Shown here: positions 15,797-44,053 of the stretch, piece by piece
Layout: each line of letters starts with the position of its first letter
Position numbering within the stretch: the stretch's first letter is position 1
Assembly: GCF_026210795.1 (NCBI RefSeq)
Contig: NC_089431.1
Coordinates: forward strand, 682,001 to 746,000
DNA length: 64,000 bases
Reading direction: 5' to 3'
Source of the DNA: Rhizophagus irregularis
Lineage: Eukaryota
Program-made: the position numbers and the translations under genes
Notes under the pieces: model-generated
What the model saw: only the letters and a program-made list of their open reading frames with translations
Database searches by the model: none
Told to the model about the DNA's origin: nothing

Positions 15797-17952
15797 ATGA
15801 AAACTAATATTCAAGTAGTTTCAACCTGCCTGAACAACTTTCAATTAATAAATAAAGTTGATTTCATTTGCCCAAAGTGGAAATATTACGCTTTAAATTA
15901 AAAAACAGAAAAGAGAGTTAATATCATCAAGAAAAATGCAATTTTCTCTAAGCACTACACCTACATTCATGAAAATTAATATTCAAGTAGTTTCAACCTG
16001 CCTGAACAACCTTCAATTAATAAATAAAGTTGATTTCATTTGTCTAAAGTGAAAATATTACGCTCTAAATTAAAACACAAAAAAGAGAGTTAATATCATT
16101 AAGAAAAATGCAATTTTCTCTAAGCACCACACCTACATTCATGAAAATTAATATTCAAGTTGTTTTAACCTGCCTGAACAACTTTCAATTAATAAATAAA
16201 GTTGATTTCATTTGTCTAAAGTGGAAATATTACGCTCTAAATTAAAAAAAACAGAAAAGAGAGTTAATATCATCAAGAAAAATGCAATTTTCTCTAAGCA
16301 CTACACCTACATTCATGAAAATTAATATTCAAATAGTTTCAACCTGCCTGAACAACTTTCAATTAATAAATAAAGTTGATTTCATTTGCCCAAAGTGGAA
16401 ATATTACGCTCTAAGTTAAAAAAACAGAAAAGAGAGTTAATATCATCAAGAAAAATGCAATTTTCTCTAAGCACTACACCTACATTCATGAAAATTAATA
16501 TTGAAGTTGTTTCAATCTACCTGAACAACTTTCAATTAATAAATAAAGTTGATTTCATTTGCCTAAAGTGGAAATATTATGCTCTAAATTAAAAAACAGA
16601 AAAGAGAGTTAATATCATCAAGAAAAATGCAATTTTCTCTGAGCACTACACCTACATTCATGAAAATTAATATTCAAGTGGTTTCAACCTGCCTGAACAA
16701 CTTTCATTTAATAAATAAAGTTGATTTTATTTGCCCAAAGTGGAAATATTACGCTATAAATTAAAAAACAGAAAAGAGAGTTAATATCATCAAGAAAAAT
16801 GCAATTTTCTCTAAGCACTACACCTACATTCATGAAAATTAATATTCAAGTGGTTTCAACCTGCCTGAACAACTTTCAATTAATAAATAAAGTTGATTTC
16901 ATTTGTCTAAAGTGGAAATATTACGCTCTAAATTAAAAAACAGAAAAGAGAGTTAATATCATCAAGAAAAATGCAATTTTCTCTAAGCACTACACCTACA
17001 TTCATGAAAATTAATATTCAAGTTGTTTTAACCTGCCTGAATAACTTTCAATTAATAAATAAAGTTGATTTCATTTGTCTAAAGTGGAAATATTACGCTC
17101 TAAATTAAAAAAACAGAAAAGAGAGTTAATATCATCAAGAAAAATGCAATTTTCTCTAAGCACTACACCTACATTCATGAAAATTAATATTCAAATGGTT
17201 TCAACCTGCCTGAACAACTTTCAATTAATAAATAAAGTTGATTTCATTTGTCTAAAGTGGAAATATTACGCTCTAAGTTAAAAAACAGAAAAGAAAGTTA
17301 ATATCATCAAGAAAAATGCAATTTTCTCTGAACACTACACCTACATCCATGAAAATTAATATTCAAGTAGTTTCAACCTGCCTGAACAACTTTCAATTAA
17401 TAAATAAAGTTGATTTCATTTGTCTAGAGTGGAAATATTACGCTCTAAATTAAAACACAAAAAAGAGAGTTAATATCATCAAGAAAAATGCAATTTTCTC
17501 TAAGCACTACACCTACATTCATGAAAATTAATATTCAAATGGTTTCAACCTGCCTGAACAACTTTCAATTAATAAATAAAGTTGATTTCATTTGTCTAAA
17601 GTGGAAATATTACGCTCTAAGTTAAAAAACAGAAAAGAGAGTTAATATCATCAAGAAAAATGCAATTTTCTATGAGCACTACACCTACATTCATGAAAAT
17701 TAATATTTAAGTAGTTTCAACCTGCCTGAACAACTTTCATTTAATAAATAAAGTTGATTTCATTTGCCCAAAGTGGAAATATTACGCTCTAAATTAAAAA
17801 ACAGAAAAGAGAGTTAATATTATCAAGAAATGCAATTTTCTCTAAGCACTATACCTATATTCATGAAAATTAATATTCAAGTGGTTTCAACATGCCTGAA
17901 CAACTTTTAATTAATAAATGAAGTTGATTTCATTTGGCCAAAGTGGATATTA
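15797..17952. repeat. Tandem array of about 12.5 copies of a 172-173 bp unit
   Basis: Units start ATGAAAATTAATATTCAAG at 15797, 15969, 16141 ... 17863. Copies are highly similar and there are no unique spacers. Confidence 0.97.
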
Positions 17953-20441
17953 TAGTATATTTGGAAAAAGAAGTTTAATTTAAAAAAATTTTATATAAAA
18001 AATAAATGTAATATGAAAATTAAGAACTGAGATGATAAAAATTTGAAAATGACCTGACATAAATTTTTAATTAATTTTTTCATTAATTATAAATTCAAGT
18101 AGTTTAAAAATAAAAATAGTAAGAAAAAATATTTTTTATGAAATATCACATTATTTTCTAAAAAAAATATACTTAAATACACTTATAAATTTAATTTGTG
18201 ATTATGTAATATCCAAATATTTAATCTTACAAATAGAAAAAAATGTAAAAAAATTTATAAAAAAAGAAAAAATTTTGAAAAAAATTTTCGTCTAACACTT
18301 TTTTATTTTGATTATCACAAGATCTACATGATCATCTACACGTTTCAATTTTTTTAACGAAAAAGAAATATATTTGAATCTATTTTTATTGAAAATCAAT
18401 AAAGATCAACAAAATCAAATACAAATATAAAACTTATTGTTTGATGCCTCAAGTTAATATGTAGCGAAAGTGGCACAAAAATGAATATTTTGTAATTTTA
18501 TTCTAATGATATCAAAGAAGCAATATTGCAATAACAACGTCTATAGCTATATAGCTATTGCAATTGCAATTAGCAATATATATAGCTATATAAAATTGAA
18601 TCAAAAAAGTTCACATTGAGCATTTCCGAAATTATGAAAAAATGCATGTAGATCGTATGACAAACTACAAATTAAGCGAAAAAGTGAATAAATTTGGAAG
18701 ATGATCATCAGAAATTTATCATCCAAAAGCATACTATCGCTAATTTAAAATAAATTTTACCATTTCAATCTATAATTAAATTTAATGGAGATTTCATTGA
18801 GATCACCAAATGTATCAGCTATTTATGGGTGATAAACTTTATGCAAATCATACCATTTCGACCAGTGTATGCACCAGATCCAAGGCCTTCCAGAAATTCT
18901 CAGAGTTTCTAATAGTCTAATACTAATATTTACTTTTTCTGTATTATGATTTACTTTAAATACAGTATTCTTCTAGAATTGGATCAAAGCGTTAATTCAT
19001 TATACCTTATTATTATTTACAGATTTTTTCCTCGTTTGTTTGATTGATAATTTTAAGTATGAAATTTATTGTTTAATGATGCTTTCGTTTGATTTCGTAG
19101 AGTGGATAAAGATATACGATGATTAAAATCTAGTATTGGAATCGCAAGAATGATAAATCTGGATGACTGGGATCACGAATTCACAGGCTACTTAACATAT
19201 GGGCCAGTATTTGTGTAAAAGTTCTAATTCGTGATGTGGATAATTTTATAGGAATTATTTTTTGTCTCATAGATGTATGAAATCAAGGCGAACTAACAAT
19301 TACAGGTGTTTTCATAATTTATGGATTTGCAGGAAATTTATTTTATTTTATTATTGCCTTTTATATTGCTAAAAATAATGAGAAAATTTTTGTTTCTGAG
19401 TGTTGACGGGTTATTGGCAAATTGAAAAAAAAATAGCAATAATTAGTGCATCATATTTTAGCGTAAACTTTATAAATTACATATATAGTGTATATACTTC
19501 AACCTTTTACCCCTCTAATATTATCATGGCTAAATCAAAAATGTGGAATATTAGGTAAGCGACCTCTGCAGACAAAATTCGTCATATCTATGTACAGACT
19601 ATTTTGAATTGAATTGAATTATAATGCTTTTTATATAAGGAGCCCCAGTTGGAGAGGTACCGCCTGCCTATTCTGATTAGACGCACGGTACTTATCGCAT
19701 GCTGGAGAAGACAACGATTCCTAGAACGAAATACACTATACTGAATGCGAACAAAGCCTGCATGTTGAACTATAGATACAACTTCTCTTATCGGCCAAAA
19801 CTTGAACCAAATGAAGCACTTAGTGCTGTTGCATCTAAATCATACTCGCATATGAGCTTCATGTATGGTAGGCATTCTAAAAAGGTGTAAAAATTCAATG
19901 AGAAGGTTTTTAGGGGTGACAAATTAGACGAAGGAGAAGTTGGAGGTAATAGATAGCCGGGTCATATTGTTAAACTTTGGAGAGAATTTTTTTGATGTTG
20001 TCAAATAAAATCACTAGAGGTATGCACGTAATTTGAGTTGAGTAACACTAACCTTATAAGATCTGAAGTCACAATTTGCACAGCTTCTGAAGTGGAATTC
20101 CTATAATAAATTTTCAGAAAATGATCATGTGTCTGAGATTCTTGAATAAAAAACTCATTTATCCATTTATCTGAGGCTCTGAGTTTTTTCTAGAATTTTT
20201 TTTTTATAGGGGATATTATTAGCTGTCAATAAAAAATGATTTATAAGCTGCCAATCAAAGGTGATTTACAATTAATTATAAAAAATGACTCATTTGAAAT
20301 TACAGTCTCGTGACTTTTTTGTTTGCCAATAATTTTCTACACATGATTTTTAATGCATTTATTTTGACACGTATCGCTGTTAGGTTTACAGTTTGTTTGG
20401 GTCACTTTTCTCTCCTCGTCTTTTGTGGTCAAATTTTCTTA

Positions 20442-22456: not shown

Positions 22457-23774
22457 AGGACCCCGGAAAATGCTTATATATGTAAGGTACCAAGGTGCTT
22501 AGCCAACATAGAAAAATTTTATGATGTAAGAATTTTATAATGCTTAATTTTAAGAAAATTTTATACTATGTAAGATAATTAAATTGCATATTTTTGGTAT
22601 TATTTTAAAATACTAAGAGTTTCTAGTTGCTTATTTTTCATATTTATAGAACTTTTTAAATTATTATATATAGAATTTATAATTAATTTTTATTTATTTT
22701 CACTAACGGTAAGTGTTAATTTTGTACTACATTTCACGATTTTATATAAATACATAAACAAAAATTTTTTTTGATGGAATTTCAGTTTTTTTTTTCAATG
22801 TTTTATTAATTATCTTTCAATAGTATCTTTTTAATTTTTATTAAACTCAGTGTATTATTTTTAATATAAAATTACTATATTATACATGTTTATTTTGTTA
22901 AATAAAGTTACTGTAAATATATTTTACTTTAAAATATAATTTCACTACTTACCACTTTGGTTATATCAAATTATCTTTTATGCTTAAGTAAGGTTATTCA
23001 GCAAGTTAAATCTACTTGTATTTTAATTTTCATAAGGCTAAGTATGATATTTATATAGAAAAGCATATTTTTTTTAACGGTAATAACTTTTAAATTTTTC
23101 ACTTTTTCGTTTATAACTTCAGAGCGTAATTACACCACTTCAGTCAAATGAAATCGACTTTCTAAATTAATTGAAAGTTGTTCAGCAAGGTCGAAACTAC
23201 TTATATATTAATTTTTATGAGTGTGGGTATAATACTTATGTAGAAAAGTGCATTTTTCATAACGGTACTAACTTCCGAATTTTTCATTTATCCGTTTACA
23301 ACTTCAGAGCGTAATTACACCCCTTTGGTCAAATGAAATCGACTTTCTAAATTAATTGAAAATTGTTCAGCAAGGTCGAAACTACCTACATATTAATTTT
23401 TATGGGTGTAAGTATAATACTTATGGAGAAATTTACATTTTTTGTAATAGTATTAATTTCGAATTTTTCTCTTACTATTTATTAACTTTATTAATTGAAT
23501 ATTATTAATCTACTTGTATATTATGTTTAGTTTAGCTTCACAACATATTTAAAATTGGATTTAATAAAATATATTAATTAATAAATATATTTTATAAATT
23601 ATATGTGTTATAATAAAAATTTAATTAGGTTAGAAGATTGATTTGCTTATTTTTATATAATTTTTAAGGTTAGATATCAACAATGCTTAGCGATCATAGT
23701 AAAAACCTGTGCTTAGAGCTACTAATAAAAAATATTTTTGGGACCTTACCTATATAAGTATTTTCCGGGGTCCT
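22457..23774. mobile_element. Non-autonomous TIR DNA transposon (about 1.3 kb) with internal repeats of about 185 bp
   Basis: TIR of about 32 bp, AGGACCCCGGAAAATGCTTATATATGTAAGGT, inverted at the right end. ATTCTACC is duplicated at 22449-22456 and 23775-23782. Internal repeat starts GTT(A/G)TTCAGCAAG near 22993, 23178 and 23363. Confidence 0.85.
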
Positions 23775-26709: not shown

Positions 26710-28978
26710 TTATATGGCTGTAAAATAAAAATTATTTTTTATCCAAATTCTATTTGTAGTATCATGATTTGGTAGTTGGCACCTTTCTGAATTACAATTA
26801 TGAATAAAATGTACTTTTTGAACATTATCTATTACAGTAATTGGAAAAATACGTCTCCATTTATCTCCTGTTGCTTGGAGACGGTAAAGTGGATATTTTA
26901 ATACTGAATGTTCAACCATAGTATCTTCAAACCAATCTACAACAATAAATGCATAATATTTGTTATTGTTACCCTTATGTTGAAAGATACCTTTGATTAT
27001 TGCATAAGATTCTTCATGATCTTCTTCATAAATTGTGATAAAATCATCGAGATGTAGGTGAACTTTTGAAAGGATACCATTTTCTTTTTCAATCATATAT
27101 GATGCAAATTTGTACCAACTAATTGAAGAGTTTATAAGTGCCGCCTCAAACTTCATATCCACATAAGATAAAAACAATTCAGTTTTAAAATTATGTAAAG
27201 TTAAAAGAAGTTTATCACGTTCCTGCTTTGGCATTCTTTCATCAGGAAATTTGTTTAGGCGTAATTTAGTGTAATATTTCGAAGGTGGTGTAAAATTTCG
27301 AAATATTACACTAAAAACGTAATATTACAAAAGTTTACGCTTTTAAATTTGAATAATTATAGTAATTTAAGAATATCTCGCTATCTACTAATCCAATCAA
27401 GACGATCTATAGCTCATTGGAATCAGCTCATCAAGACGAATCGAATGGTAGTAAAATCGTATCTTTACGTTTGATAGATGACTTTCTATTAATTTAAAAC
27501 TTTACTGTATACTATAGAGCGTTCTATCAACTGTAGAAATGCGATTTTACTACCATTCGATCCGTCTTGATGAGCTGATTCCAATGAGCTATAGATCGTC
27601 TTGATTGGATTAGTAGATAGCGAGATATTCTTAAATTACTATAATTATTCAAATTTAAAAGCGTAAACTTTTGTAATATTACGTTTTTAGTGTAATATTT
27701 CGAAATTTTACACCACCTTCGAAATATTACACTAAATTACGCCTAAACAAATTTCCTGATGTTTTTTTAATGAAATATTGGAAATAAAGTTTACTGGAGA
27801 TATAACTAAATTAAAAGATTAGTAAATATAAATATCAAACATGTACTATTATATGCAATAAAATACTTACTTTTTGTATCATCATCATAGTCTTGAACTT
27901 GTTCAGTTGCTTCAGTTGAATATTTATCTTCTGTAACATACCAATTTAAAAATAATTGTCCAAAATTTGAATTTGTAAATCCAGTACAAGATCTATTAAA
28001 TCTTGGATCAATACCACTATCTGCTAAATGTCGAATTGCAAATAAAGTATTGTAACGCTTTAATAAATCTAAATCTATGTTTTTGCAATTAGTTTTTGGT
28101 ACCATCCCCTTAAAAATACGATGGACCATTTCTTTTATACCAACTTGGGTATTAATAAGTGTTCCAAAGGTTTTAGCATGCATCAAAAGATGCATATTAA
28201 CGTGTATGTTTGGTAAATTAACAAAATTTACAAAAACCTATAAAAAGTAAAATATTGTTAATTATTTGAAATTATTCCACATTTCAATATCAAATTTGTA
28301 ACTATACCTTTGGAAGGATTGAAAACTCTTCTTCAAGACATTGTTGCAATTCCTCATAGCTATCTGATGTAAATTTCTTGTTAAAAACCGCTTTCATAGT
28401 TTTTGCAACATGTATCCAACAAGATATAATAATTTTTGGAACTGAACTAACTCGAAATGCATCAATTCTTTGTTGAATCATGGCTGTTTCATTACGTTTG
28501 ATACTTGATTCTTTTAAAAAACTGGTTTAACAAAAATGGCATAATCATAGCTAATCTAAGTAAATCCGACATCATAAAACTATTGTAGTGAGTAATCGGA
28601 TTTGGTAAGCGAGACCATCTTTTTGGAATTTCAAAATTTTTCCAAATTTCGATAAAATTATCTTCTCCTTCTCATGAAAATAATTCACAAGTTAATTTTA
28701 GTAGCCGCCCAATCTTTCCTGCAGTCGCATGATAAACATCCTGCGGCGTCTGTAAATGTCTTTCCCTTTTTAATTTATCTAAAATACTAGGTAATGATCG
28801 TAAACCATATTCCGTACAAAGTTGATCTCTTCTTGACATTATAGTCTCATGAGAAATTTTTAAGATTTCTTCGTCTGTAATATGATGATAACGTAATGTT
28901 GTTACGATATCCTGATTGTGAGCACTCAATGATTCTTTAGTAGTTTTACAAGTACAACAACCCTTATTTGCATTATGT
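26710..28978 (-). pseudogene. Degenerate DNA-transposon transposase (Plavaka/CACTA-like), 3' exons only
   Basis: Motifs TPQDVYHATAG, NLPNIHVNMHL...GTLINTQVGIKEMVHRIFK and a C-terminal VHFIHNC...NHD..NRIWIKNNFYF. In-frame TGA at 28674-28672, a frameshift near 28530, and a foldback insertion at 27240-27761. The upstream intron is interrupted at 29009. Confidence 0.7.
27240..27761. mobile_element. 522-bp foldback element with very long TIRs and a probable 2-bp TSD
   Basis: 27240 to about 27460 is the near-perfect reverse complement of about 27540-27761, with termini CATCAGG...CCTGATG. Excising it with one AA copy restores the host frame ISNISLKK-RMPKQER. Confidence 0.9.
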
Positions 28979-29347: not shown

Positions 29348-30243
29348 TTATCGAAATTTAATCTGATATTCTCGGTCAATAATGTAAAACTCATTGTTTG
29401 ACATCTTAAGAAATCCGACATTTCTACAAATTGCACTTACATTAATTACTTCAAAAGCACCATGATCTTGAAACTTTAATGGCCCATGTCCAGAAGGATG
29501 AGGATTTCGTATCCATTGCACATATGCTAGCATAGACCAGTCACTGTTGTATTGATGCGAAAAAAAATATTGTACTTCTCCAAAGAATTCACGCTCTTCC
29601 AAAATAACAGGTGCATTTGGGCGATGTGCATTTCGGTCAACTAGAAGCTTCGCCTAAATAAAGAAAATTAGTAATATTAAAATATTAAAAGTATTAAAAA
29701 TGATGATATATATACACATACAGCAATGCAGTAATTTGTGCGTGCCACATCACCCTTGCGATTTGACAATTTTGAATTAATTGTTAAATCATTTTTGGTT
29801 TGAAGTTTTCCATATTTTTGAATGGAATTTGTAATTAACTTAAATGAAATATATTAGAAGATTAAAGGTTTTTTTAGAATAAAATTTAAACAGTAGGAAA
29901 TGTGCTTACTGAAAGTTGATTTGCATTTCTGTTTAATGCTGTCACATAATAGGCTCTTAAGCGCTGGATCTCAGTTCTATTCATGCAATATTTGCGTGAT
30001 AGTGAATATAGCACTTCTTCAGCACCGTCAGTAGTAAAATAATTGTTTTCTGAGTAATTTAATGTTTTTTTTGAATTTTTACTAATGAGCCTTTGATATA
30101 TATTAGGTTTATATTGAAGATGTGAAAACTGGGTCCACATTGTAATTTGATTTTGGAGGTTTGTATAAGGATGTTGTGTAGAACGAACCAAAGGCAATAG
30201 CATTCCACATAGCCTTTCCATGGGATACTGCCAGGTTGCCCAT
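29348..30243 (-). pseudogene. CACTA Tnp2-family transposase, 3' exons
   Basis: ATWQYPMERLCG continues directly from GPAW across the LTR insertion. C-terminal FFGEVQYFF...LAYVQW. Confidence 0.85.
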
Positions 30244-30930
30244 TGTCACCCACGTCTGCCACCCGTGGATAAACACATCTTTCTCATTTAACTATTTTTC
30301 TCGTTACTTTGCTTGGTTTAGATTTTACTTTTCTTTTAACTTCTCGCTTTCCTTCTCATACATCCGTAGTATTTATTCTCAATACTACCACTCATTCATA
30401 ATATTCTCACAATATTATGCTGCCTGTAATATTTATTCTTTCAAATATTACCATCTTATTTCTTATAAACTGCGAGAGTTCTCCTAACTTCTTACATTTC
30501 ATACAATAAAACGAGAATAACTCCTTTTACTTTACTTTTCTGGACTTAATAATAATATTAATTAATTCTCAAGCGTACAATGAGCATATTCAAGATAACT
30601 TTTAATAATTAATATTTATTTTATTAAATTTGAGTCAAAACTGACTGCGGAATTCCTAACGAATCCCACCTATATTTATACATTTTTAAGAAAACTATTT
30701 CTACCATTTCTAACTTTTCTACTAATAAAAATTTAAGAACAATAAGAAAATAAAGATGTATTATCATATGACTATCTCGTGACTAAACTAAACTAAACTA
30801 TAAATATTATTTTATCGGTTAATTATTTATCCTTCGGTTAATTATTTATCCGTCGGTTAATCATTTATCCGTGTTCCATTCGGTCTTTTATTCATCCGCT
30901 CACGTGATTATCTGCATTTCTCGGGTTACA
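30244..30930 (-). repeat. 3' LTR (687 bp)
   Basis: Direct repeat of 41124-41791, TGTCACCC...GGGTTACA on the plus strand. Confidence 0.95.
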
Positions 30931-30961
30931 GCTATCCTCCCCAAGGAAAATTTGAGTCCCT

Positions 30962-32149
30962 TCAAATTCTAATTATAACTTCAAAACTCGACCTGTCAAT
31001 ATATTCCTTTAATAATTCTCCATTTACTGGCGTTTTCTGTATTCTTCCCTCCATAGTTTTAATTTTATAAGATCCTTTAGAAATTATTTCATGTATATAA
31101 TACGGTCCTTTCCATTTTTCTTCTAGTTTTCCAGACCATTGTTTTTCTTTTGCTGCATCATAATATAGTACTTTATCTCCTATTTGAAAATTCTTTTTCG
31201 TCCTGTATTTCCTATCGTGGTATTTCTTCTGTTTTTCTTGAGATTTCTCTATATTTTCTTTAGCTTGGTTTCTAATGTTCGGTAGATCTTCCATCAAACT
31301 ATTAACTCTTTGTGTTATCGTAACATTTTCATCTTCTAAATTTAATAACGTCTTCATTTCTCTTCCGTATATTAGATATCCTGGTTTTAACTTGGTCGAA
31401 TCATTCTTCTTTGTTCTATATGCAAATAAAACTCCTGGTACTTTTAAATCCCAATCTTTAACGTTATTCAATTTTGCTAATGATTCACATAGTGTCTTGT
31501 TGAACCTTTCTATTAATCCATTCGTCTTCGGGTGGTAAGGTGTCGAAAAATTGTGTTTTATCTGAAATTCCTTCATTAATAGTTCTACTAGTTTATTATT
31601 AAAATGACTTCCCCTATCACTTAATATCTTCTTTGGGCATCCATGTCTACATATTATATCTTCATAAATAAATCTTGCAATTTCCTTAGCGTCTGCTGTT
31701 CCTAGAGCTCTAGCTTCTGGCCATTTCGTAAAATAATCCATTGCCGTAACTATGTATCTATTATTTCTTTCTGTTATTGGTAACGGTCCCACAACATCTA
31801 TTCCAATCTGATAAAATGGTTCTTTAACTTTTATTACATTTAATTCGTGTTTTCCAATCGGTTTTCCTCTTCTTTGGCAGCTATTACACGATTTAATATA
31901 TATTTCTATATCTTGTTTCATTCCATTCCAATAATATTTCTCTCTAATCCTTTCATATGTTGCATCTATTCCAAAATGTCCAGATAATTCATGGTCATGT
32001 GCAATATACATTAATCCTTCAAACTCATATTTTCTTATTACTCTCAATTCTCTCTTATCCTTTATTCTATATAACAAACCATCTTTTATTCTATAATGTT
32101 GTTCATTATCTATATTTTTGATTATCTCATTATATTTATCTTCTTCCAT
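30962..32149 (-). CDS. Ty3/Gypsy integrase as a separate ORF
   Basis: HHCC (AHDHELSGH...CNSC), GIDVVGP, SDRGSHF, NGLIERFN and a GPY motif. Confidence 0.95.
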   Translation of the reverse strand: MEEDKYNEIIKNIDNEQHYRIKDGLLYRIKDKRELRVIRKYEFEGLMYIAHDHELSGHFGIDATYERIREKYYWNGMKQDIEIYIKSCNSCQRRGKPIGKHELNVIKVKEPFYQIGIDVVGPLPITERNNRYIVTAMDYFTKWPEARALGTADAKEIARFIYEDIICRHGCPKKILSDRGSHFNNKLVELLMKEFQIKHNFSTPYHPKTNGLIERFNKTLCESLAKLNNVKDWDLKVPGVLFAYRTKKNDSTKLKPGYLIYGREMKTLLNLEDENVTITQRVNSLMEDLPNIRNQAKENIEKSQEKQKKYHDRKYRTKKNFQIGDKVLYYDAAKEKQWSGKLEEKWKGPYYIHEIISKGSYKIKTMEGRIQKTPVNGELLKEYIDRSSFEVIIRI

Positions 32150-32290
32150 TAATCAGTATATCTTCTATTTCTTCTTCAAAAGGTAAAATAAACCTAATAT
32201 TTTTATCTTCAAATAACACGCAATGATAATTTGTATTCCTATGTATAATGTAAATGTATATTCCTATTCCAATATTTTCAGTAGTCATTT

Positions 32291-34612
32291 TTATTTTTCC
32301 AATAGCTTTTTGGCTTGTTTATATACTTTTTTCCAACTTTTATCATCATTTTTAATTTTAATTCTCTTATATTTCCCTTTATTCTCATAAATATTCTGAT
32401 GCTCTTTAAACATTTTCACCATATCCGTATATTCTTCTTCATTCAACGTTTCATATGATGTTTTATGTCCTTCATTACTTTTCTTAGTTTCTCTTCCAAT
32501 ATAGTTATTCCAACATTCTTTATTCTCTAAGAAAATTATTACTGCATTATCTATAATATCTTTATATTTAAATATCTCCTTCTCCATTTTATGGTTTCCA
32601 TATGGAGTAATATATTCTCTGTCGAAACTTTTGGTCTTTTGGTAAAAGTATTCACAATATGGTGACTTGTCCAATATTATAATGTCTTCATCTGTAAATC
32701 CAACCATTCTCTTATTAATTTCTTCCACGACTTGTTTCCTGAATAACCATTCATATTCTTTCGAAGGTTCCTCAAATCTCTTATCATCATTTCTTCTTCT
32801 TTTAAACTTATTAAATATTATTTTTAAATCATCCTTTTCTTTTAATCGCTTAATCATATTTTCTACTACGGTGGATTTCCCTACACCATCAACTCCATCA
32901 ACAATAATAATTTGTGGTTTATTCTTCCTTCCTAATTTCTTTAATAACTCTTTTTCTGTCTTTTCTTCTAAATCCAATAATATTGCTTCTTTATCATAAA
33001 AATATTTCACGTCGTCCCATTTTCCTTTAAATCTTCTAGCGTCAAACCATTCATTTCCTGATCTAACATATCTCAGCTTTTTCTCTTTATTATGCTCCAT
33101 TTTCATTATTTCTTGATCTAAGCCTTCAAGGTCCCTTTTTATAACTTTTTCTTCAAACTCTAATCTTGATAGCGCATCTGCATTCTTATTTTCTTTACCA
33201 CTTCTATGTATTACTTCAAAATCATACTGTTGTAACTCCATTACCCATCTTGCTCTTCTTCCTGTAGGTACTTTAGCATTCATTAATCCTTTTAACGCAG
33301 CATGATCTGTTATAACCGTAAATTTTCTTCCTGCTAAGAACTTATGGAAATACTTGATCCCCCAGAATATCGCTAAACATTCTAATTCTGTTATTGCATA
33401 ATTCTTTTCTGCTCCCACTAAACTTCTACTAGCATAAGCGATAACAAATTCTTTATTTTCTTCATTCTTCTGAGATAATACTGCTCCTAACCCTTCTCCT
33501 GATGCGTCTGTAATCAATATAAATTCCTTTTCAAAATTAGGGTGATCTAATACTGGTTTCTCCATTAATCTTATTTTTAATTCTTCAAATGCTTCCTGCT
33601 GTTTCTCTGTCCATTCAAATGGTACATCTTTTTTAACTAAGTGATATAAAGGCTTTGCTATTTTCGCAAAATTCTTTATAAATCTTCTATAATATGAGCA
33701 CAATCCTAAAAATGACCTCACTTGTGTAACAGTTTCTGGTATCTTTATTTCTTTAATCTTCTCCACTTTCTTTGCATCTGGTTTCAAACCATCTCTTCCA
33801 ACTATATGTCCTAAAAATTCTATATTTCGTTCACCAAACTTACATTTCTTTAACTTTGCAATCAGATTATTTTCTCTTAATTTATTTAACACTTTATCAA
33901 TATGTTCCACATGTTCTTCAAAATTTTTCGAATAAATCATTATATCATCTAAATATACTATTACGAATTCTCCAATATATTCTCTTAATATCTCGTCCAT
34001 TAATCTCTGAAATGTTCCTGGTGCATTCTTTAAACCAAATGGCATAACATTATATTCATATAATCCTTGTGAGCATATAAATGCTGTCTTTTCTTTATCT
34101 TCTTCTACCATTTCCACTTGATGATACCCTGCCGCTAGATCCAAACTCGTAAACCATCTTGCCGTTCTATATTTTTCTAATAATTCATCTATTCTTGGTA
34201 ATGGGTATGCATCTGACTTAGTTACATTATTCAATTTCCTATAATCAATGCAAAATCTATAATTTCCTGTTTTCTTTCCTGCTAGTGTTACTGGAGATGC
34301 CCATGGGCTCCATGATTTTCTAATTTTTCCCATTTTTAATAACTGTTCAATTTCTTTCTTTATAAACTTTCCTTTTTCTTCAGTCTCCTTATATCTCTTC
34401 TGTGCTATTGGTTCTTGACCTTCTTTAATTTCTATTTTATGTTTAACAGTGTTTACTTTTCCTAATTTTTCTTCATCATATTCAAATATCTCTTCATAAC
34501 TTTTGATTAGCTTTATTATACCATCCTTTCTTTTATCTGTTATTTCTCCCAAGTTTATCTTTTTATCGAACTTTTCCCATTTAGTTTCACTTTTATCATT
34601 TTCATTTATCAT
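32291..34612 (-). CDS. pol: Reverse transcriptase-RNase H fused to a C-terminal P-loop nucleoside/nucleotide kinase-like domain
   Basis: RFCIDYRKLN, MPFGLKNAP, YLDD, TDAS, ELE, TDH and NADALSR, followed by IIIVDGVDGVGKST (Walker A) and IIILDKSPYCEYFY. Confidence 0.93.
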   Translation of the reverse strand: MINENDKSETKWEKFDKKINLGEITDKRKDGIIKLIKSYEEIFEYDEEKLGKVNTVKHKIEIKEGQEPIAQKRYKETEEKGKFIKKEIEQLLKMGKIRKSWSPWASPVTLAGKKTGNYRFCIDYRKLNNVTKSDAYPLPRIDELLEKYRTARWFTSLDLAAGYHQVEMVEEDKEKTAFICSQGLYEYNVMPFGLKNAPGTFQRLMDEILREYIGEFVIVYLDDIMIYSKNFEEHVEHIDKVLNKLRENNLIAKLKKCKFGERNIEFLGHIVGRDGLKPDAKKVEKIKEIKIPETVTQVRSFLGLCSYYRRFIKNFAKIAKPLYHLVKKDVPFEWTEKQQEAFEELKIRLMEKPVLDHPNFEKEFILITDASGEGLGAVLSQKNEENKEFVIAYASRSLVGAEKNYAITELECLAIFWGIKYFHKFLAGRKFTVITDHAALKGLMNAKVPTGRRARWVMELQQYDFEVIHRSGKENKNADALSRLEFEEKVIKRDLEGLDQEIMKMEHNKEKKLRYVRSGNEWFDARRFKGKWDDVKYFYDKEAILLDLEEKTEKELLKKLGRKNKPQIIIVDGVDGVGKSTVVENMIKRLKEKDDLKIIFNKFKRRRNDDKRFEEPSKEYEWLFRKQVVEEINKRMVGFTDEDIIILDKSPYCEYFYQKTKSFDREYITPYGNHKMEKEIFKYKDIIDNAVIIFLENKECWNNYIGRETKKSNEGHKTSYETLNEEEYTDMVKMFKEHQNIYENKGKYKRIKIKNDDKSWKKVYKQAKKLLEK

Positions 34613-34700: not shown

Positions 34701-35336
34701 TTAATCCTCATTCTCACTAGACATTTCGCTATCATTAGACGGGCTTTCTTCACTTGAACTTTCACTATCTTCTTGAGACTCATTTTCTTCTACTACTTCC
34801 TTTTCTTTTATTACTTCTTTTACTGTGTATAATTTCTTTCCTTCTTCTTGTTCATAATCAGATTCTTCTGATTCACTTTCATAGTCAGATTCTTCTGACT
34901 CTTCTACTTGTTTAATATACCACACAGGTATATCTATTATTTCTTCGTCATTTTCCAATTCTAATACCTTTTCTTTATAATTAATATTCGCATTCCATTT
35001 ATCTAATAAGTCATTTCCTATAATCATTTCTTTTTGCTTTGAATCTATTACATCTAATGTTACTGGTAATATTAATTCCTTATAAACTTTTATTTCTGTA
35101 TTCACTTTTCCTAATGAAGCAATCTTTCCTCCGTCTGCTAATGTACACGTAATATTACTTTTTCCTTTTATTGGTATATCTAACTCTTTTCTTAATTTCT
35201 CTGTTATTACACTTATTGCCGCTCCTGAATCTATTACAACTTCGATTTCCTTATCATTTATTATAAACTGTGTCTTCATTGCCGTTGTAACTTCTTTTTC
35301 TCCACTTATTCCAGTCTTTTTCACCTCCGAGTGTAG
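34701..35336 (-). CDS. Retropepsin aspartic protease, in frame with gag after a single UGA
   Basis: VVIDSGAAISVI and MIIGNDLL. The gag stop TGA (35339-35337) is followed in frame by CTA CAC TCG GAG GTG. Confidence 0.88.
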   Translation of the reverse strand, partial: LHSEVKKTGISGEKEVTTAMKTQFIINDKEIEVVIDSGAAISVITEKLRKELDIPIKGKSNITCTLADGGKIASLGKVNTEIKVYKELILPVTLDVIDSKQKEMIIGNDLLDKWNANINYKEKVLELENDEEIIDIPVWYIKQVEESEESDYESESEESDYEQEEGKKLYTVKEVIKEKEVVEENESQEDSESSSEESPSNDSEMSSENED

Positions 35337-38300
35337 TCACTCTATTTTATCTCCTTTTCTTATCATTTTTTTTATCATTCTTCCTTGTTGTTCCACAATA
35401 TTAAGTAGGTTTTCATAATCTACTGGATCTTTTGATTTCACTCCTATAATTTTATCTTCTCTTGGTCTACGTTTTCCTCCTGCTTCTTTCCATCTATTTA
35501 TTCCTTCCATTGTGTCGTAATATTCTCCTCTCTTTTTACTCCATTTATATCTTTTTGGAATATTCGTATTATTTGGTCCTATTGGTCTATCGTACATTGG
35601 TTGTTCATCTCCCACATCTTCTTCCATTGGAACTTCTCTTCTATTTCTATATTTATATTCTTCTTTCCCTCTTTCCTCAATTTCTTTGTCTAAATTTGGC
35701 TTTCCAAAATTTTTCCATCCTTGTTTAGGATTTATTCTATTACTTCTTCTTCTTTCTTGTACTGGATTATCTTTTTCATACAAATCGCGATCATAATTAT
35801 ACAATTGTGAATTATTATATTCATTATTTTCATGGTCGTAATCATCATCTGATTCTTCATTTTCGTAGTCATAATCTTCTTCATATTCTTCTATATCCAT
35901 TAAATTAACTCTTCTCTCATTTCTTCTAATATTATTTCCTAATGGACATCTAGTCGCAAAATGACCTCTTCTATTACACCTAAAACAAGTTATTTCATCA
36001 TAATTAATCGGTGCTCTATTATTTCTTCTCTGGTTCCATTGGTCTCTATTCCCATTATTATTTAACTCTCTTTCCATATTTTGTACTTGTTTTTCTAGCT
36101 TGGCAATTCTCATTTTCTCAAATTTTTCCGCTAATTCATCTTCATAATTCTCGTTTAATGGTTTATTATGTCTGACATTTGTTCCAACATTTTGTTCTTC
36201 AACATATCCTTTTCCAATCTCCGGATAAACTCTATCTGGTATATTTCCTGCTTTTCTAAATAATTCATTTCTTGCTTCTTCTTCCCTTCTTGCTAAATTT
36301 ATTGCATCATTTAAATTTGCTGGGTTCTGTCTTCTAACTTGGTACCCTACTGTTGCTTCTAGTCCTTCAATATAAAAATCTACTTGATATTCGTCAGCTA
36401 ATGCATGACCTCTTGTCGCTAATCTTAATACTTGTCTAAATCTCCTCGTATAATCATCGACATTTTCATTTATTCCTTGTTTAGTTTTTCTCAATTCCAA
36501 CATTTTTCTTCTTCTAACATCTTCTCTGGTAAATCTTCTTTTAATTCTATGTTTTAAATCATTATCATTATCTGCATCTGCCCAATTCACTAAATGGCCC
36601 GCATTCGCTTCTCTCATTTCATGATACCATTGTGCTGCTGCTCCTCTTAAATGTGCTGCTGCGAATGTCGCTTGTCTTCCACCGTCAGGTCCTGCTGCTT
36701 TTCCAATTGCTGCGAATGCTACTTCAAATTGTCTAATCCAATCACTAACATCCTCTTCTTCTTTTCCATAAAATAATGGTATATTAATTATTCCTCCAGC
36801 TTCATTTCCTGCATTTTCAATCCTATCTATTAAGTGTGCTCCTACCCCTACTACTCCATCCAAAGTATTAGCTGGATATCCTAAAGCATTCTCCATTAAT
36901 CTTTTTATTTGAATTTCAGTCGCCATGTTCAACAATATATTCTCTTCACTTTCTGTATCAGAATTTTCAATATCAGAATCCTTAATATTTAATGAATTAT
37001 TCGAATCTGAATTTTGACTTAAGCCAAAACCTTCTGTATTTATAATATTTTCATTTTTACTCTCAAATTTATTCTCATTAAAACTTTCAGTATTTTCTTC
37101 CCAAATCTCATGTTCTTCTGGATCTAACATTTCTCCAATCTTTTCTGATTCATCTGTATTATCTTCCTCTGATTCTTCATTATCACTTTTTTCATCACTA
37201 TCCACTATTCCTACCTGTTCTTTTAACAACTTATCTAACTTTTTCTTCAGCTCTTTTTCTGACTCATTCTTATTTTCTTGAAAGATTTCGATAAATTCTT
37301 TATCTAAAATTTCTCCATCTGTATACCCCATACTAATCAATCTTAATAATTCTCCATCAGAAACTTCCATTTTCATAACTTTGATTAGATTTTTTAACTG
37401 TTCTAATCTTTTCTCTATTTCTGTTTCATCATCTAATTCATTCTCATCTTTTACATTTTCTTCTTCGTTGTTTTCCTCTGTCTCTATTTGTTCTTTTAAA
37501 TATTTATCTAATATTTCTTTTATGACTCCCTCCAATTCATTCTTATTTTCTTGGAATAACTTTATAAACTTCCAATTCAAGATTTCTCCATCTGTATAAC
37601 CCATATTTATCATTCGTAATATTTCTCCTTCTGTTACTCCAACTTCTACTCCTTCGCATACTTTCTGTATCTTCTTTGCTCTTAGTTCTGCTTCACTAAC
37701 ATCATTCTTCTCTTTCTCAGAACAACTTTTACATATTTCTCCTGTAAATTCTTTATCATATTTTACCGCTTCTTTCTTCAGTGTCATTTTGTTACATATC
37801 GGACATTCTATCGTATACATATAATGCCATATTCTTAACTCTTCTTTTATTCCTTTGTCGTCTAGTTCTTCAATGGTTTTGTAAAAACTCATAAACTCTT
37901 TAGTTTTTATTATTTCATATTCTACTCTAAAATTTATTATTCGTCTTATTTCTTCAATATCGATTTCATAATCATTCTCTAACCAATAATTTCTGTATAT
38001 TCTTTCTATATGTTCATCTCCTTCATTTGAACTTGATTCTCCCAAATCATCTGACATTTCTAGTTCTCCTGCATCACTTTGTTCTTCAACAAAACCTTTT
38101 GTTTCTACAATTTTCTCTATTATCTTATCTGTTAACTTATCGTTCATCCATGGTTTTGGGTATTTATTTCTATCCCACCATTGATATGTTATACTTTTCT
38201 GAAACTTCCTGATTTTCCCTCTATTTTCTTCTTCTACTATATTTTCCTCTAAATGCAATATTTCTTTGAAATATCTCATAGTACCGTATCCTTTGTTTTT

Positions 38301-38867
38301 AATAGTTATTGATTCCTTTTCTTCTAACCATCCTTCAAATTTTGCAAATCTTATATCCAGTTCGTCATCTTCTATAATATACTTATATGTTAACAATTCT
38401 CTATTTCCTAATAGATTCTCTTCTGCTCGATCGTCTAATATAAACTCATTATCTTCACTCAATATGTAATGTTCACAGATCACTTTCATCACTGATATAA
38501 TTCCTATTTTTCTGTAGTCCGGTTTATTTCTGTACCTTATTGATCTTATGACTACATCCAACAGTTTTTCTCCTTCTTTTCTCATTCTCTCTAATTCTTT
38601 ATTTCTTTTCTTTTTACTAGATGGATAACTTTCTTCCCCATCCTTTCTTGTTAGTCTTATGTACTCCATTAATTTTGTATGTGTATTCCTGTTATAACTC
38701 ATTGCTTCTAATATTACCTTTTGGAAAATCTTCCAAAACTTTTTAAACCAATCTTCTATCTCTATTCCGTCGGTACTATAACATTTTAGGCATGAAGGAT
38801 CTATTTGATACTCTTCTCTCGATTCATTATGTTTTTCTATTTCGTGTCTATTTTTAATCTCTTCCAA
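35337..38867 (-). CDS. gag: Gag polyprotein with an N-terminal extension of about 640 aa, capsid domain and CCHC zinc knuckle
   Basis: Capsid motifs (IPLFYG, LRGAAAQW, KQGINENVDDY, YIEGL) and CFRCNRRGHFATRC. The start codon is uncertain because the ORF opens at TTG. Confidence 0.88.
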   Translation of the reverse strand: MEEIKNRHEIEKHNESREEYQIDPSCLKCYSTDGIEIEDWFKKFWKIFQKVILEAMSYNRNTHTKLMEYIRLTRKDGEESYPSSKKKRNKELERMRKEGEKLLDVVIRSIRYRNKPDYRKIGIISVMKVICEHYILSEDNEFILDDRAEENLLGNRELLTYKYIIEDDELDIRFAKFEGWLEEKESITIKNKGYGTMRYFKEILHLEENIVEEENRGKIRKFQKSITYQWWDRNKYPKPWMNDKLTDKIIEKIVETKGFVEEQSDAGELEMSDDLGESSSNEGDEHIERIYRNYWLENDYEIDIEEIRRIINFRVEYEIIKTKEFMSFYKTIEELDDKGIKEELRIWHYMYTIECPICNKMTLKKEAVKYDKEFTGEICKSCSEKEKNDVSEAELRAKKIQKVCEGVEVGVTEGEILRMINMGYTDGEILNWKFIKLFQENKNELEGVIKEILDKYLKEQIETEENNEEENVKDENELDDETEIEKRLEQLKNLIKVMKMEVSDGELLRLISMGYTDGEILDKEFIEIFQENKNESEKELKKKLDKLLKEQVGIVDSDEKSDNEESEEDNTDESEKIGEMLDPEEHEIWEENTESFNENKFESKNENIINTEGFGLSQNSDSNNSLNIKDSDIENSDTESEENILLNMATEIQIKRLMENALGYPANTLDGVVGVGAHLIDRIENAGNEAGGIINIPLFYGKEEEDVSDWIRQFEVAFAAIGKAAGPDGGRQATFAAAHLRGAAAQWYHEMREANAGHLVNWADADNDNDLKHRIKRRFTREDVRRRKMLELRKTKQGINENVDDYTRRFRQVLRLATRGHALADEYQVDFYIEGLEATVGYQVRRQNPANLNDAINLARREEEARNELFRKAGNIPDRVYPEIGKGYVEEQNVGTNVRHNKPLNENYEDELAEKFEKMRIAKLEKQVQNMERELNNNGNRDQWNQRRNNRAPINYDEITCFRCNRRGHFATRCPLGNNIRRNERRVNLMDIEEYEEDYDYENEESDDDYDHENNEYNNSQLYNYDRDLYEKDNPVQERRRSNRINPKQGWKNFGKPNLDKEIEERGKEEYKYRNRREVPMEEDVGDEQPMYDRPIGPNNTNIPKRYKWSKKRGEYYDTMEGINRWKEAGGKRRPREDKIIGVKSKDPVDYENLLNIVEQQGRMIKKMIRKGDKIE

Positions 38868-39371
38868 TTCATCATATATCAGACATCTTGGTTTATTTTA
38901 TTTACCTATTCACTTGCAAAATGATTTCATTTCATATTTCCATTTTATTTATATATATTTTTTTTTTTTTTTTTTTACTCGTATAGTAGTTATTCATTTA
39001 TCATTTCAATCTTTATTTCTTTTATATTTCCGTGTTTACAACTTTCTACTACATTTCTTTATTACCTCTTTTATTCCATTACTCGTAACTTAATATTCTT
39101 CTAACTTCATTAATTCCTAATTAGTTTAACGTCTTTCCGGACAATTATTTGTCCCTAAATTCTTATTATCTACATATTTCCTGTATTTCCATCTCAACCG
39201 CTTAATTTCATTACACTTATTATTCTTCTTATGGTATCCTTTTATTCCACCCATTATCTTCTAACGTCTTTTCGTATATTTATTTCATCCCTTAATATTC
39301 ACAATTTCTTATTTATTATTATTTTATTTCGTCATTATTCATTTTCTTTTACTTCTATAATAATCGATTAC

Positions 39372-39632
39372 TCAGCTTCTATTATCACTTGAATATCTAT
39401 CAATTATTCTAAATTTTAAATTCAACCATTTGATCTCATTTTTATCCCAATCTGCAATACACATTCCTTCATTTTCAAACCATTGTAGCGCATTTCCTAA
39501 TAAATGTGTCTTCGCAATCTTAAATATTCTTTTATCGTCCTCAATTCCTATCTTTGACAGATATTTTTCTACTTGATTCGTCCATTCTTTTGGATTTTCT
39601 CCTATTACGCCATAAAATATTGGTATCTCCAT
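39372..39632 (-). CDS. Stand-alone Gag capsid N-terminal-domain-like ORF (86 aa)
   Basis: EIPIFYG..GENPKEWTNQVE...AKTHLLGNALQWF...LKFRIIDRY aligns by eye with the element's own gag, NIPLFYGKEEEDVSDWIRQFE...AAAHLRGAAAQWY...LKHRIKRRF. Confidence 0.75.
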   Translation of the reverse strand: MEIPIFYGVIGENPKEWTNQVEKYLSKIGIEDDKRIFKIAKTHLLGNALQWFENEGMCIADWDKNEIKWLNLKFRIIDRYSSDNRS

Positions 39633-41102: not shown

Positions 41103-41120
41103 CTCGAAAGCATTGCACCA
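41103..41120 (-). promoter_or_regulatory. Primer-binding site of the LTR element
   Basis: TGGTGCAATGCTTTCGAG begins 3 nt after the 5' LTR, and TGG complements tRNA CCA. The tRNA identity was not determined. Confidence 0.8.
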
Positions 41121-41123
41121 AAT

Positions 41124-41791
41124 TGTCACCCACGTCTGCCACCCGTGGATAAACACATCTTTCTCATTTAACTATTTTTCTCGTTACTTTGCTTGGTTTA
41201 GATTTTACTTTTCTTTTAACTTTTCGCTTTCCTTCTCATACATCCATAGTATTTATTCTCAATACTACCACTCATTCATAATATTCTCACAATATTATGC
41301 TGCCTGTAATATTTATTCTTTCAAATATTACCATCTTATTTCTTATAAACTGCGAGAGTTCTCCTAACTTCTTACATTTCATACAATAAAACGAGAATAA
41401 CTCCTTTTACTTTACTTTTCTGGATTTAATAATAATATTAATTAATTCTCAAGCGTACAATGAGCATATTCAAGATAACTTTTAATAATTAATATTTATT
41501 TTATTAAATTTGAGTCAAAACTGACTGCGGAATTCCTAACGAATCCCACCTATATTTATACATTTTTAAGAAAACTATTTCTACCATTTCTAACTTTTCT
41601 ACTAATAAAAATTTAAGAACAATAAGAAAATAAAGATGTATTATCATATGACTATCTCGTGACTAAACTAAACTAAACTATAAATATTATTTTATCGGTT
41701 AATTATTTATCCTTCGGTTAATCATTTATCCGTGTTCCATTCGGTCTTTTATTCATCCGCTCACGTGATTATCTGCATTTCTCGGGTTACA
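41124..41791 (-). repeat. 5' LTR (668 bp)
   Basis: Direct repeat of 30244-30930. By eye it differs at about 3 transitions and one 19-bp indel. Confidence 0.95.
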
Positions 41792-44053
41792 CCATGCAGG
41801 CCCAGTATTATATATTGAATCAGCAATATGTAATAGATAATGGTAGGAAATGAGCGCTGCTGGAAGTTGTGCAGAATTATTCTGAATATATTCTCTATTA
41901 AATGTTAAATATATAATTTAATGTCAAAGTTACGGATAAATGGATATGAAAGCATACAGTACTTTTCATAATACGTGATAAATTCACAAAATAACCTTCT
42001 AATTTCTGTTAATTCTTCCATACTGATAATATGTTTAAGGCAAAGCTTTGTTGCATGTACGAATTTTGCCCATCCATTTAAATGCCTAAATAAATTTAGC
42101 AAAATCTATCTATTAAATAACATCAAAAAATAATGTGCTTTTATCACTTACAAATTAAAACATTACCTTTCTGGAAGATAGCTTTGTAAAAGTGGAAGTG
42201 AATATAATACCACCCAATTCATCCAGTCTTCTGCCTTAAATCCAGCTGAATGTTGCTGAATATTAATAGGTGGACGACCAAAATCAAATGGCATATTTTT
42301 TCGATTTTTTTCCATTGTTTTTCCTATTTCTGTCCAATCTTTATTAGGAATGATATAATTAGAATCAAAGTCTTGATCATCTTTGAAAAAAATGCCAGAC
42401 CAATGCCGAAGCATTGCTGGTGCAACATTTTCAAACAACCCATGCATAATATCAACAGGAAAAGATACAGGAAATCTAATTGAGTTTAATTCAAATAAGA
42501 TGCTGCGGCCATTTACCCCTGTAAATATAAACAAGTAAGAATTGTTTATATGAATTTGCTAAATGTATTTAAAATAAATGTACCTCGATCTTGTATTTTA
42601 CGTTTACGTGATGATCCAGATGCATTTTTTACAACAGTAACATCACGTATATAATCTTCATGTGTTCTCAGCGGAAGGTTTTCAGAATTATACTGACATC
42701 CTGACATATTCATTGGAGGTTTAAGTGGAAAATATACATGTCGATTTCCTTGACAATATATTCCACGAATAGAGCAAAATCGGCATGCTTTATATGAATT
42801 ATGTCCTGTTGTATACATTACTTTGGAAAGTGCTGGGATATCACCAGAAATACTTAAAATGTGTGCATGGAGTGTAAAGGTATTTTCTGTTAAACCATCA
42901 ATACATTGAATACCTTCTGTATTGTTATTATGAAATAAAAATTAATATATTATATTAAATACATTATAATAAAAATAAGTATGCAAAACCTTGCAACTGC
43001 TTTAATTCATCGATTAGTGGCTGTAGAAAAGAGTTAAAGTTTTTTGGTGCTTTTGGTCCTGGAATAAGTGCAGAAACCATTAAATTTTCTCGCTTAACAC
43101 GTATATTAGGTGGTAAGTTTGCATTTATAAAGAGTATAACCCAACAATCATCTCTTTTTTGACGAAAAATTTGATATCCATCAATTGATGCCATTAGAGC
43201 TATATCCCGACAGTCTGAAAAGAAACCAGATGTGGCTAAAGTTTTGTATTGAAGGCCATCAAATACATCACCTATCTGATTACCAAGAGTATATTCATAA
43301 GTAGAAGTATAATTATATCTGTAACGAAGAATTTCTGCACGAGTTTTATCTTTATATTGGGTCTGAAATGAATCAATAAGTGACCAATAAGCAGCTTTTT
43401 TTCGAGATATTTGAGATTCTTCATCAACTTTATAACGTGGCTCTTTACATTCTGGACAAATATTTTTGTTAATAAGCTCGCCTGTGAACGCCACACATGA
43501 ATTTATACAACAATCTACAAGAGTTGGTTTTAATAACATAAAATTTCCAAGAAACTTTCGAAGTTTGTAAAGTGTAATTCCAGGAATTTCAAAAACTTTA
43601 AGAATTTCGTTAAATGCAGCTTCTGAAATATTGTGTTTATCTTTAATTTGAAGAAGCTGTAAACCTTTAATTAAGTTTTCTGAATAATTATTAGAATTTA
43701 TGCAAAATTTAAAATAAATTCATAATGTTTATTTACTGTAGCCTACCAAAATCTTCACATTCAATATTTTCATTTCCTTCCCTATTATTATTATATTCTT
43801 CATCTTCATCTTCATTTTCGCCATTATTGTATTCATCAGTTTCACTATCATAAATGTGTTCTTCTTCAATATTATTATCATTCTCTTCTTCACTATCCAC
43901 TATTTCAATCTGCTGATCATTTATATTATTCTCTTCATTGCTATAATCTTGATCTTCTAGAATATTATTATTAGGTGATAATGTCATTGGAATAGTTTGA
44001 GAAATAGAAGTAGCTAGGCATCGCTGAGTAGTATGAAAATGCCGGTTCTGGCT
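41792..44053 (-). pseudogene. CACTA Tnp2-family transposase, 5' exons
   Basis: DCCINSCVAF..CPECKEPRY, ASIDGYQIF, NANLPPNIR, IPGPKAPKNFNSFLQPLIDEL, SGDIPALSK..GHNSYKACRFC, PVDIMHGLFEN, GFKAEDW and YHYLLHIADSIYNTGPAW, separated by short introns. Confidence 0.88.

Follow-up and report, generated by a model that had tools for sequence, protein, structure and literature searches.

A 64,000-nucleotide stretch of Rhizophagus irregularis DNA (contig NC_089431.1, positions 682,001 to 746,000 of the forward strand, referred to here as the window) includes an 11.5-kb Ty3/Gypsy long terminal repeat (LTR) retrotransposon on its minus strand, in which a P-loop kinase domain is joined to the ribonuclease H (RNase H) of the pol region. 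This kinase can be considered a real, selected cargo enzyme of an unusually organised Gypsy lineage, apparently one that has not been described before. The open reading frame (ORF) that encodes it, 32291-34612 on the minus strand, is open over 773 amino acids counted from its ATG and includes a reverse transcriptase (RT; RVT_1, E 4e-42), the RNase H and the kinase. As had been claimed in a prediction made from the letters of the sequence (the original prediction), the frame continues for 289 amino acids (33160-32294) past the RNase H end motif NADALSRL and includes IIIVDGVDGVGKST, the P-loop (pol amino acids 572-581), IIILDKSPYCEYFY, in which the D is amino acid 648, and YIGRE, in which the R is amino acid 707. 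The same prediction placed the domain where integrase normally follows; the kinase does occupy that position, but the integrase has been kept and follows as an ORF of its own (30962-32149). The kinase domain proper consists of the last 209 amino acids of the 773-amino-acid ORF (32294-32920, minus strand).

An AlphaFold2 model of the domain, generated from a 36-sequence alignment (pLDDT 90.4), was compared with 48,161 PDB representatives. The nucleoside monophosphate (NMP) kinase fold that had been anticipated was recovered, since the model is of the deoxynucleoside kinase/thymidylate kinase (dNK/TMK) type at structural Z values of 15-16. The best matches were human dGK (Z 16.2, rmsd 3.1, 194 residues aligned), Staphylococcus aureus TMK (Z 16.2, rmsd 2.9, 177 aligned) and Giardia dAK (Z 15.2); a further comparison put dCK, TMK and dGK level at Z 16.2-16.3, with rmsd values of 3.0-3.1 for dGK and dCK, and the leading Foldseek matches in the PDB and viral libraries were also dNK/TMK. 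The NMP-kinase core, consisting of five strands, acceptor domain and lid, superimposes at an rmsd of about 3 over 177-195 of the 209 residues. At the sequence level PHROG 761, ‘thymidylate kinase’, matched residues 1-197 of 209 with an E value of 2.5e-11 and was also matched by 35 of the 36 aligned family members, and the first Atlas match of the domain was a TMK-like cluster, chiefly phage (0.95). The scores obtained with the established families were 18.6 for PF02223 Thymidylate_kin (cut-off 27 bits), 18.3 for TIGR00041 thymidylate kinase (cut-off 83) and 16.6 for PF01712 dNK (cut-off 27 bits; 25.9 for the form found at locus L023), and the few relatives that exceed the Pfam Thymidylate_kin cut-off do so barely, on the P-loop. 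The modelled domain is thus a predicted member of the dNK/TMK superfamily, yet it belongs to neither family by cut-off. An FtsY-type identity, suggested by PDB sequence searches in which only the P-loop matched, and the Pfam AAA/NB-ARC/STAND matches were dropped once the fold was known.

Homologs of the kinase comprise 38 long and 76 short sequences; all species names among them are Glomeraceae (R. irregularis, R. clarus, R. diaphanus and Glomus cerebriforme) and the remaining ones are metagenome records. RT/RNase H Pfam domains were present in 33 of the 38 long homologs, a figure that favours fusions because the homolog search was length-limited, and integrase was present in four more. At 20 of the 25 metagenome loci the kinase shares its contig with RT, RNase H or integrase; of the other loci, two are only about 1 kb long and three are of a distant type. 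A long linker joins the kinase to RNase H in the window and at loci L001, L006 and L011; at L012 and L013 the fusion is direct, and at L019, L021 and L022 the kinase forms a separate ORF. It is therefore a standard gene of one Glomeraceae Gypsy lineage. A database protein identical to the 773-amino-acid ORF sits in a 28-member cluster, the named members listed being R. irregularis, which points to this species as the host.

The kinase domain is under purifying selection. In keeping with the original prediction, which called for retention at dN/dS below 1, the median dN/dS of its relatives against the window copy was 0.098 (range 0.069-0.220). It was taken over the 12 pairs, from a total of 25, that were unsaturated; all pairs share the window sequence and hence are non-independent. 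Values for the neighbouring domains were 0.173 for integrase (13 of 14 pairs), 0.165 for RT (5 pairs) and 0.095 for RNase H (7 pairs). That the domain is a passenger in decay, or captured DNA that is read through by chance and has no role, could be proposed on the grounds that many database copies are truncated and that expression is barely visible. However, a dN/dS of about 0.1 at near-saturated dS largely refutes this proposal, the composition of the kinase resembles that of RT and integrase (GC3 0.25 versus 0.21-0.22), and the domain is kept in four named species and three architectures, so that we regard it as highly improbable. RT and kinase divergences covary (Spearman 0.57, 231 pairs from 22 proteins), and one discordant protein pair, P0011/P0014, suggests from its sequences an exchange between subfamilies.

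When 1.84 billion representatives were searched with a profile, 77 matches were obtained, and generic TMK/dNK sequences appeared only from about 1e-5 or weaker; as judged from these sequences the kinases form a closed family of their own, in which strong matches stop ahead of generic TMK/dNK. Most of the remotest true members (identity about 25-36%) are fusions of the kinase with a MutT-like Nudix domain. At L023 and L024 the Nudix-kinase gene is followed by an Mrr-type nuclease together with two ORFs, one of them coiled-coil and the other gag-like with a CCHC motif, and no pol was seen on the contig. These genes are closely packed at L023, L024 and L025, where the CCHC ORF has an Arg/Ser-rich tail and the contigs likewise include no pol. 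A coiled-coil ORF, not RNase H, stands ahead of kinase plus integrase at L007 (3-386) and in P0033 and P0151, a layout that is possibly an RT-less derivative or a different element with a shared cassette. Other cargo found between kinase and integrase includes an F-box ORF (L015, 655-1086) and an ORF of 81 or more codons (L013, after 1041). No close relative of the kinase was found among phage records, where there was one weak 24-amino-acid match, among viral contigs, or among the matches listed for prokaryote genomes, which included at least 13 weak TMK-like loci. Two prokaryote loci, L027 (340-1921) and L037 (near 8001), have tandem TMK-like gene pairs that may be of the PPK3 type. A tree of 120 rows, made by a quick method and having long branches, did not place the family with respect to eight outgroup kinases, and because of this no donor is named. 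The 55-amino-acid subdomain at the N-terminal side of the kinase unit is found in separate-ORF relatives and is missing from short-fusion relatives; a viral fold search that included the N-terminal extension gave no match for it. Its identification as a Nudix remnant found no support: 0 of 11 Nudix-side linkers outscored the full set of 100 shuffles, and a control with RNase H scored equally well.

Conservation of the active site was followed in 68 non-redundant full kinases, out of 110, that were filtered on the P-loop and the D-K motif, so that the positions of these two motifs are conserved by construction. Outside them K40 (66 of 68), R43 (66), R61 (68), N69 (67), E90 (66), Y93 (68), the lid residue R143 (67) and Y164 (67) are kept. 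The domain has the G-x-D-G-x-G-K-S/T P-loop of TMK, with the TMK-type Asp in 66 of 68 sequences at a filtered position; Tyr and Gln are located 9-10 residues past the strand-3 Asp in TMK fashion; and hhalign comparison with six TMK-like sequences (98.4%) put DKSPYCEYFYQ in register with DRYKYATYAYQ. Enzymes of the dNK type have a catalytic Glu where strand 2 ends. In a profile alignment with one dNK this Glu is missing, N-K-F standing opposite F-P-E-Y, which, with the residue roles taken from general background, argues for a phosphorylated acceptor. The F-Q position of dNK is an invariant F-R in the family, and the acceptor side has the conserved basic residues K40, R41, R42, R43, R61, K62, R71 and K85. 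These motifs favour a (d)NMP kinase, while the invariant basic cluster and the D-K pair leave other substrates open, polyphosphate included. The earlier reading of the domain as a thymidylate or deoxynucleoside kinase stands as far as the fold is concerned but is less firm as to substrate, since the catalytic D-R of TMK is D-K in the family.

We give an even chance to a role, the likeliest of those considered and in line with the precursor supply suggested in the original prediction, in which the kinase phosphorylates deoxynucleoside monophosphates (dNMPs) and so raises the DNA precursors available for the element's own reverse transcription. Catalytic activity and substrate class are what we infer here, and the fold is predicted; the (d)NMP class was chosen because of the second Asp in the P-loop, the TMK-like Tyr/Gln, the lack of the strand-2 Glu and the extra basic residues. 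The kinase would be made together with RT and integrase from one RNA, the kinase and integrase ORFs being translated by stop-restart, and in the window copy the fusion would deliver it one-to-one with RT. A (d)NMP kinase would turn deoxynucleoside monophosphates into diphosphates (dNDP), a host NDP kinase would complete the step, and the benefit would be expected when host deoxynucleoside triphosphate (dNTP) pools are low, in resting or non-dividing nuclei. The fusion of the nearest distant homologs to Nudix, another nucleotide-pool enzyme, was counted in favour of precursor supply, and the viral TK that counters low dNTP provides an analogy (PMC7999308, in part; here and below ‘in part’ marks a source of which a portion was consulted).

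The structural lists, which are topped or tied by dGK, dCK, Giardia dAK and Drosophila dNK, also fit a salvage kinase like dCK/dGK or the insect dNK, which would give the element a deoxynucleoside salvage route that, to our knowledge, most fungi lack. An hhalign alignment to a dNK covers 153 columns including the lid, D-K-S-x-Y-x-E matching D-R-S-x-Y-x-D, and Diversisporales have multiple copies of Nudix proteins that include a dNK domain as defined by Pfam (PMC12210691, in part). Nevertheless, the end of strand 2 is without Glu where the aligned dNK has P-E, F-R is invariant at the dNK F-Q position and the P-loop Asp is of the TMK type, and we consider a salvage enzyme quite unlikely.

Arbuscular mycorrhizal fungi keep a polyphosphate store, and a TMK-fold enzyme repurposed for polyphosphate in the manner of PPK3 could use it to make nucleotide triphosphates. 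The conserved basic residues from K40 to K85 make this a real rival, because a basic cleft, put in place of the dTMP-binding residues, turned the TMK fold into PPK3 (PMC12995831, in part), and the Sulfolobus tokodaii PPK3 homolog 2plr matched the model at Z 13.2. This value is, however, 3 Z units under those of dNK/TMK, with PPK2 lower still (11.9); a tandem TMK-like pair, assumed to be of the PPK3 type, aligns at the P-loop region only (50 columns); and the whole element is lysine-rich. A polyphosphate enzyme seems to us very unlikely. The replacement of D-R by D-K and the basic cluster are also compatible with another target, which might be the end of a nucleic acid, a nucleotide that is damaged or modified, or a signal in host defence, and likewise with a nucleotide-binding regulator of RT that has little catalysis. 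The same slot takes host-manipulating cargo (the F-box ORF at L015), and the Nudix form lies beside an Mrr-type nuclease at L023/L024. Conservation of the P-loop Lys, the lid Arg and the acceptor-side aromatic residues speaks against this group of functions, and the top 50 structural matches include no polynucleotide kinase, which does not exclude one; we hold such a target to be unlikely.

Several observations weigh against the dNMP kinase reading itself. The substrate is not readable from the fold because identity to solved kinases in structural alignments is only 10-18% and dNK and TMK tie. F-x-x-x-R is the thymine-pocket motif of TMK, and it has no clean alignment in the family. The catalytic Arg of the TMK DRX motif is absent, D-K-S being found throughout the family with a Lys that is invariant in the 36-sequence alignment, and this Arg is described as essential in TMK and PPK2 and as replaced in an inactive PPK3 subunit (PMC12995831, in part). 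On its own a dNMP kinase goes no further than dNDP, and a cellular TMK is presumably encoded by the host. Packaging is not guaranteed because the kinase is a separate ORF at three loci (L019, L021 and L022). The suggestion in the original prediction that the enzyme acts inside the particle is accordingly weaker than stated, several relatives encoding the kinase separately and RT being out of frame with gag-protease. Finally, the mean RNA depth over the kinase did not exceed 0.3 (bin 32464-32857), in a thin sampling.

The way in which the ORFs follow one another points to their mode of expression. In the window the kinase is followed by a 50-codon ORF and then by the integrase, and homologs of the 50-codon ORF are present at L002, L003, L006 and L010. 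This small ORF (48-52 codons across loci) has a hydrophobic start and an H-C motif, had no NCBIfam match, and is omitted from gene models or spliced into them. Among 26 sequences examined, 18 have an intact kinase end, and in 14 of these an ATG that opens at least 40 codons lies at −14 to +8 nt of the kinase stop, an interval that was set after the first data were seen and in sequences that are related. For comparison, this arrangement was found at 5 of 153 stops located elsewhere than in the element, and at 104 of 877 stop triplets inside it. The junctions take the forms ATGA, TAATG and ATG-n-TGA, and as sequences they suggest termination-reinitiation of the kinase and integrase ORFs. An in-frame TGA-CTA, which we take to be a read-through context, follows gag in the window (35337-35339), at L012 (372) and at L024 (3935); at L024 the frame behind it is a 130-amino-acid one that is not a protease. 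No convincing intron from protease to RT was detected in the window or at L012. Four R. irregularis raw-read RNA runs, sampled to 24-32%, each contributed 153-220 reads, which fell on both strands and were mostly less than 95% alike; they included no joint in the pol region and are too thin to inform expression or splicing.

The element resembles Ty3/Gypsy (Metaviridae) in its LTRs, target-site duplication, primer-binding-like site, polypurine tract, gag with CCHC knuckle and the domain order gag, protease, RT, RNase H, integrase, and its RT-RNase H is closest to that of Ty3 among solved RTs (E 8e-111; next 8r0s, 2e-73; foamy-type and other retroviral ones, 1e-34 or weaker). Unlike Ty3, its pol is split into protease, RT-RNase H-kinase, 50-codon ORF and integrase, an in-frame TGA-CTA separates gag from protease, ORF1 has about 650 extra N-terminal amino acids and a kinase lies behind RNase H. 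A single protease-to-integrase polyprotein frame, a usual but non-defining trait of Gypsy elements, was found neither in the window nor in the relatives, where the ORFs are separate.

Retroelements are held to rely on host dNTPs, and dUTPase is the captured nucleotide enzyme usually cited. It is carried by LTR retrotransposons and retroviruses, in the latter sometimes between RT and integrase (PMC5408684 and PMC6431247, in part), and as a nucleotide-metabolism enzyme captured in pol it parallels the kinase; unlike dUTPase, which removes a harmful nucleotide, the element enzyme has the predicted fold of a synthetic kinase. The word ‘kinase’ has 0 occurrences in these two papers as consulted. 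With TMK (PF02223, PHROG 761) and dNK (PF01712), including the forms encoded by phages and by large DNA viruses, the enzyme shares the predicted fold, the P-loop, the strand-3 acidic motif and the lid Arg; it differs from them in its 10-20% identity, D-K for D/E-R, an FKRRR after strand 2 and scores below the family cut-offs. In the same phylum, Glomeromycota Nudix subfamilies C and F have been described as Nudix plus dNK (Diversisporales) and subfamily K as Nudix with retrotransposon domains (Glomerales), so that both the fusion of Nudix with a kinase and the occurrence of Nudix in retroelements of Rhizophagus have been reported (PMC12210691, in part). In the portion consulted, the dNK and retrotransposon domains belong to different subfamilies and no kinase-retroelement link is made. 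Unlike subfamilies C and F, compared here by description, the window ORF has no NUDIX match; Nudix is found in distant homologs. Termination-reinitiation with AUGA, UAAUG and AUG-n-UGA arrangements is used by victoriviruses and the hypovirus CHV1, and also by SART1, a non-LTR element (PMC5972666, in part); unlike in those systems, stop/start pairs here would chain ORFs within the pol of an LTR element, a mechanism read from the sequence.

A literature search, made partly by title and with Repbase, Dfam, GyDB and subscription journals outside it, returned among the matches listed no nucleotide kinase in an LTR retrotransposon. The word ‘thymidylate’ is absent from the main text of the Rhizophagus transposable element papers PMC8647823 and PMC11075540, whose supplements or repeat libraries might hold the family. 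With a kinase that is maintained by selection, an LTR element would be moving toward the metabolic self-supply known from large DNA viruses, and dNTP shortage as a limit to transposition in a non-animal host would become testable with one point mutant. The family would also represent a new kinase type with an unusual active site, would account for many gene models mis-annotated as ‘thymidylate kinase’ or ‘NB-ARC’ in Rhizophagus, and hints that an LTR element may have its integrase translated by stop-restart. Taken in its full extent, the picture would be one of a virus-like Gypsy lineage of arbuscular mycorrhizal fungi having a polycistronic stop-restart pol, a cargo slot, an enzyme that would be the first in any LTR retrotransposon to synthesise nucleotides, a new kinase family with D-K and a basic acceptor site, and partial independence from host dNTP pools, possibly by way of polyphosphate; we offer this whole as a possible but somewhat doubtful scheme.

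Features of the kinase-bearing retrotransposon (coordinates are those of the window)
Feature	Position	Strand	Remarks
5′ LTR	41124-41791	minus	668 bp, TG...CA ends
3′ LTR	30244-30930	minus	687 bp, TG...CA ends
Target-site duplication CCAT	30240-30243 and 41792-41795	strandless	
Putative primer-binding site	41103-41120	minus	begins TGG, 3 nt past 5′ LTR; from sequence
Polypurine tract	30931-30942	minus	adjoins 3′ LTR
Short upstream ORF	39372-39632	minus	weak match of Arc-capsid type (E 0.0018, which does not reach the cut-off)
ORF1	35337-38897	minus	about 650 N-terminal amino acids followed by gag (Retrotrans_gag, Ty3_capsid, CCHC knuckle)
Aspartic protease frame	34701-35336	minus	acidic tail; same frame as gag, right behind gag stop
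Reverse transcriptase	33536-34612	minus	YLDD; own ATG downstream of AT-rich spacer
RNase H	33161-33535	minus	catalytic motifs intact
Linker and folded N-terminal subdomain of kinase unit	32921-33160	minus	subdomain of about 55 amino acids
Predicted dNK/TMK-superfamily P-loop kinase domain and stop codon	32291-32920	minus	209 amino acids
Conserved 50-codon ORF	32136-32288	minus	2 nt after kinase stop; 14-nt overlap with integrase ATG
Integrase	30962-32149	minus	separate ORF; HHCC, D-D-E, GPY

In the sense direction the order is ORF1 with gag, TGA-CTA, protease, AT-rich spacer, RT-RNase H-kinase, 50-codon ORF and integrase. The insertion is young, as only three substitutions and one 19-nt indel separate the two LTRs and the CCAT duplication is present. 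The element disrupts a Tnp2-type (CACTA) transposase region, with Transposase_21 at 42967-43719 and reading frames on both flanks. In the window copy RT, RNase H and integrase all retain their catalytic motifs, and the integrase ORF had no chromodomain match. No tRNA gene was detected within the window, and the putative primer-binding site has no tRNA match there. The 5′ end of ORF1 is apparently frame-shifted in this copy, and its amino acids 4-400 had no Atlas match. The region of about 650 amino acids ahead of gag (36929-38897, minus strand) includes CxxC pairs and an internal repeat (37216-37358 and 37489-37631), and has a homolog at L012 after 5930.

Elsewhere in the window, long minus-strand ORFs of 1075 and 674 amino acids surround an rve integrase ORF (49973-51043, plus strand) in the region 46794-53067, which from its sequence may be a Maverick/Polinton-like element. 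An inverted repeat of 252 nt, 95% complementary and with an 18-nt loop, is located at 27240-27761. Tandem units of about 172 nt occupy 15727-18093 and 23009-23378, with an inverted related copy near 23100, and another Tnp2-type transposase region lies at 58705-62058.

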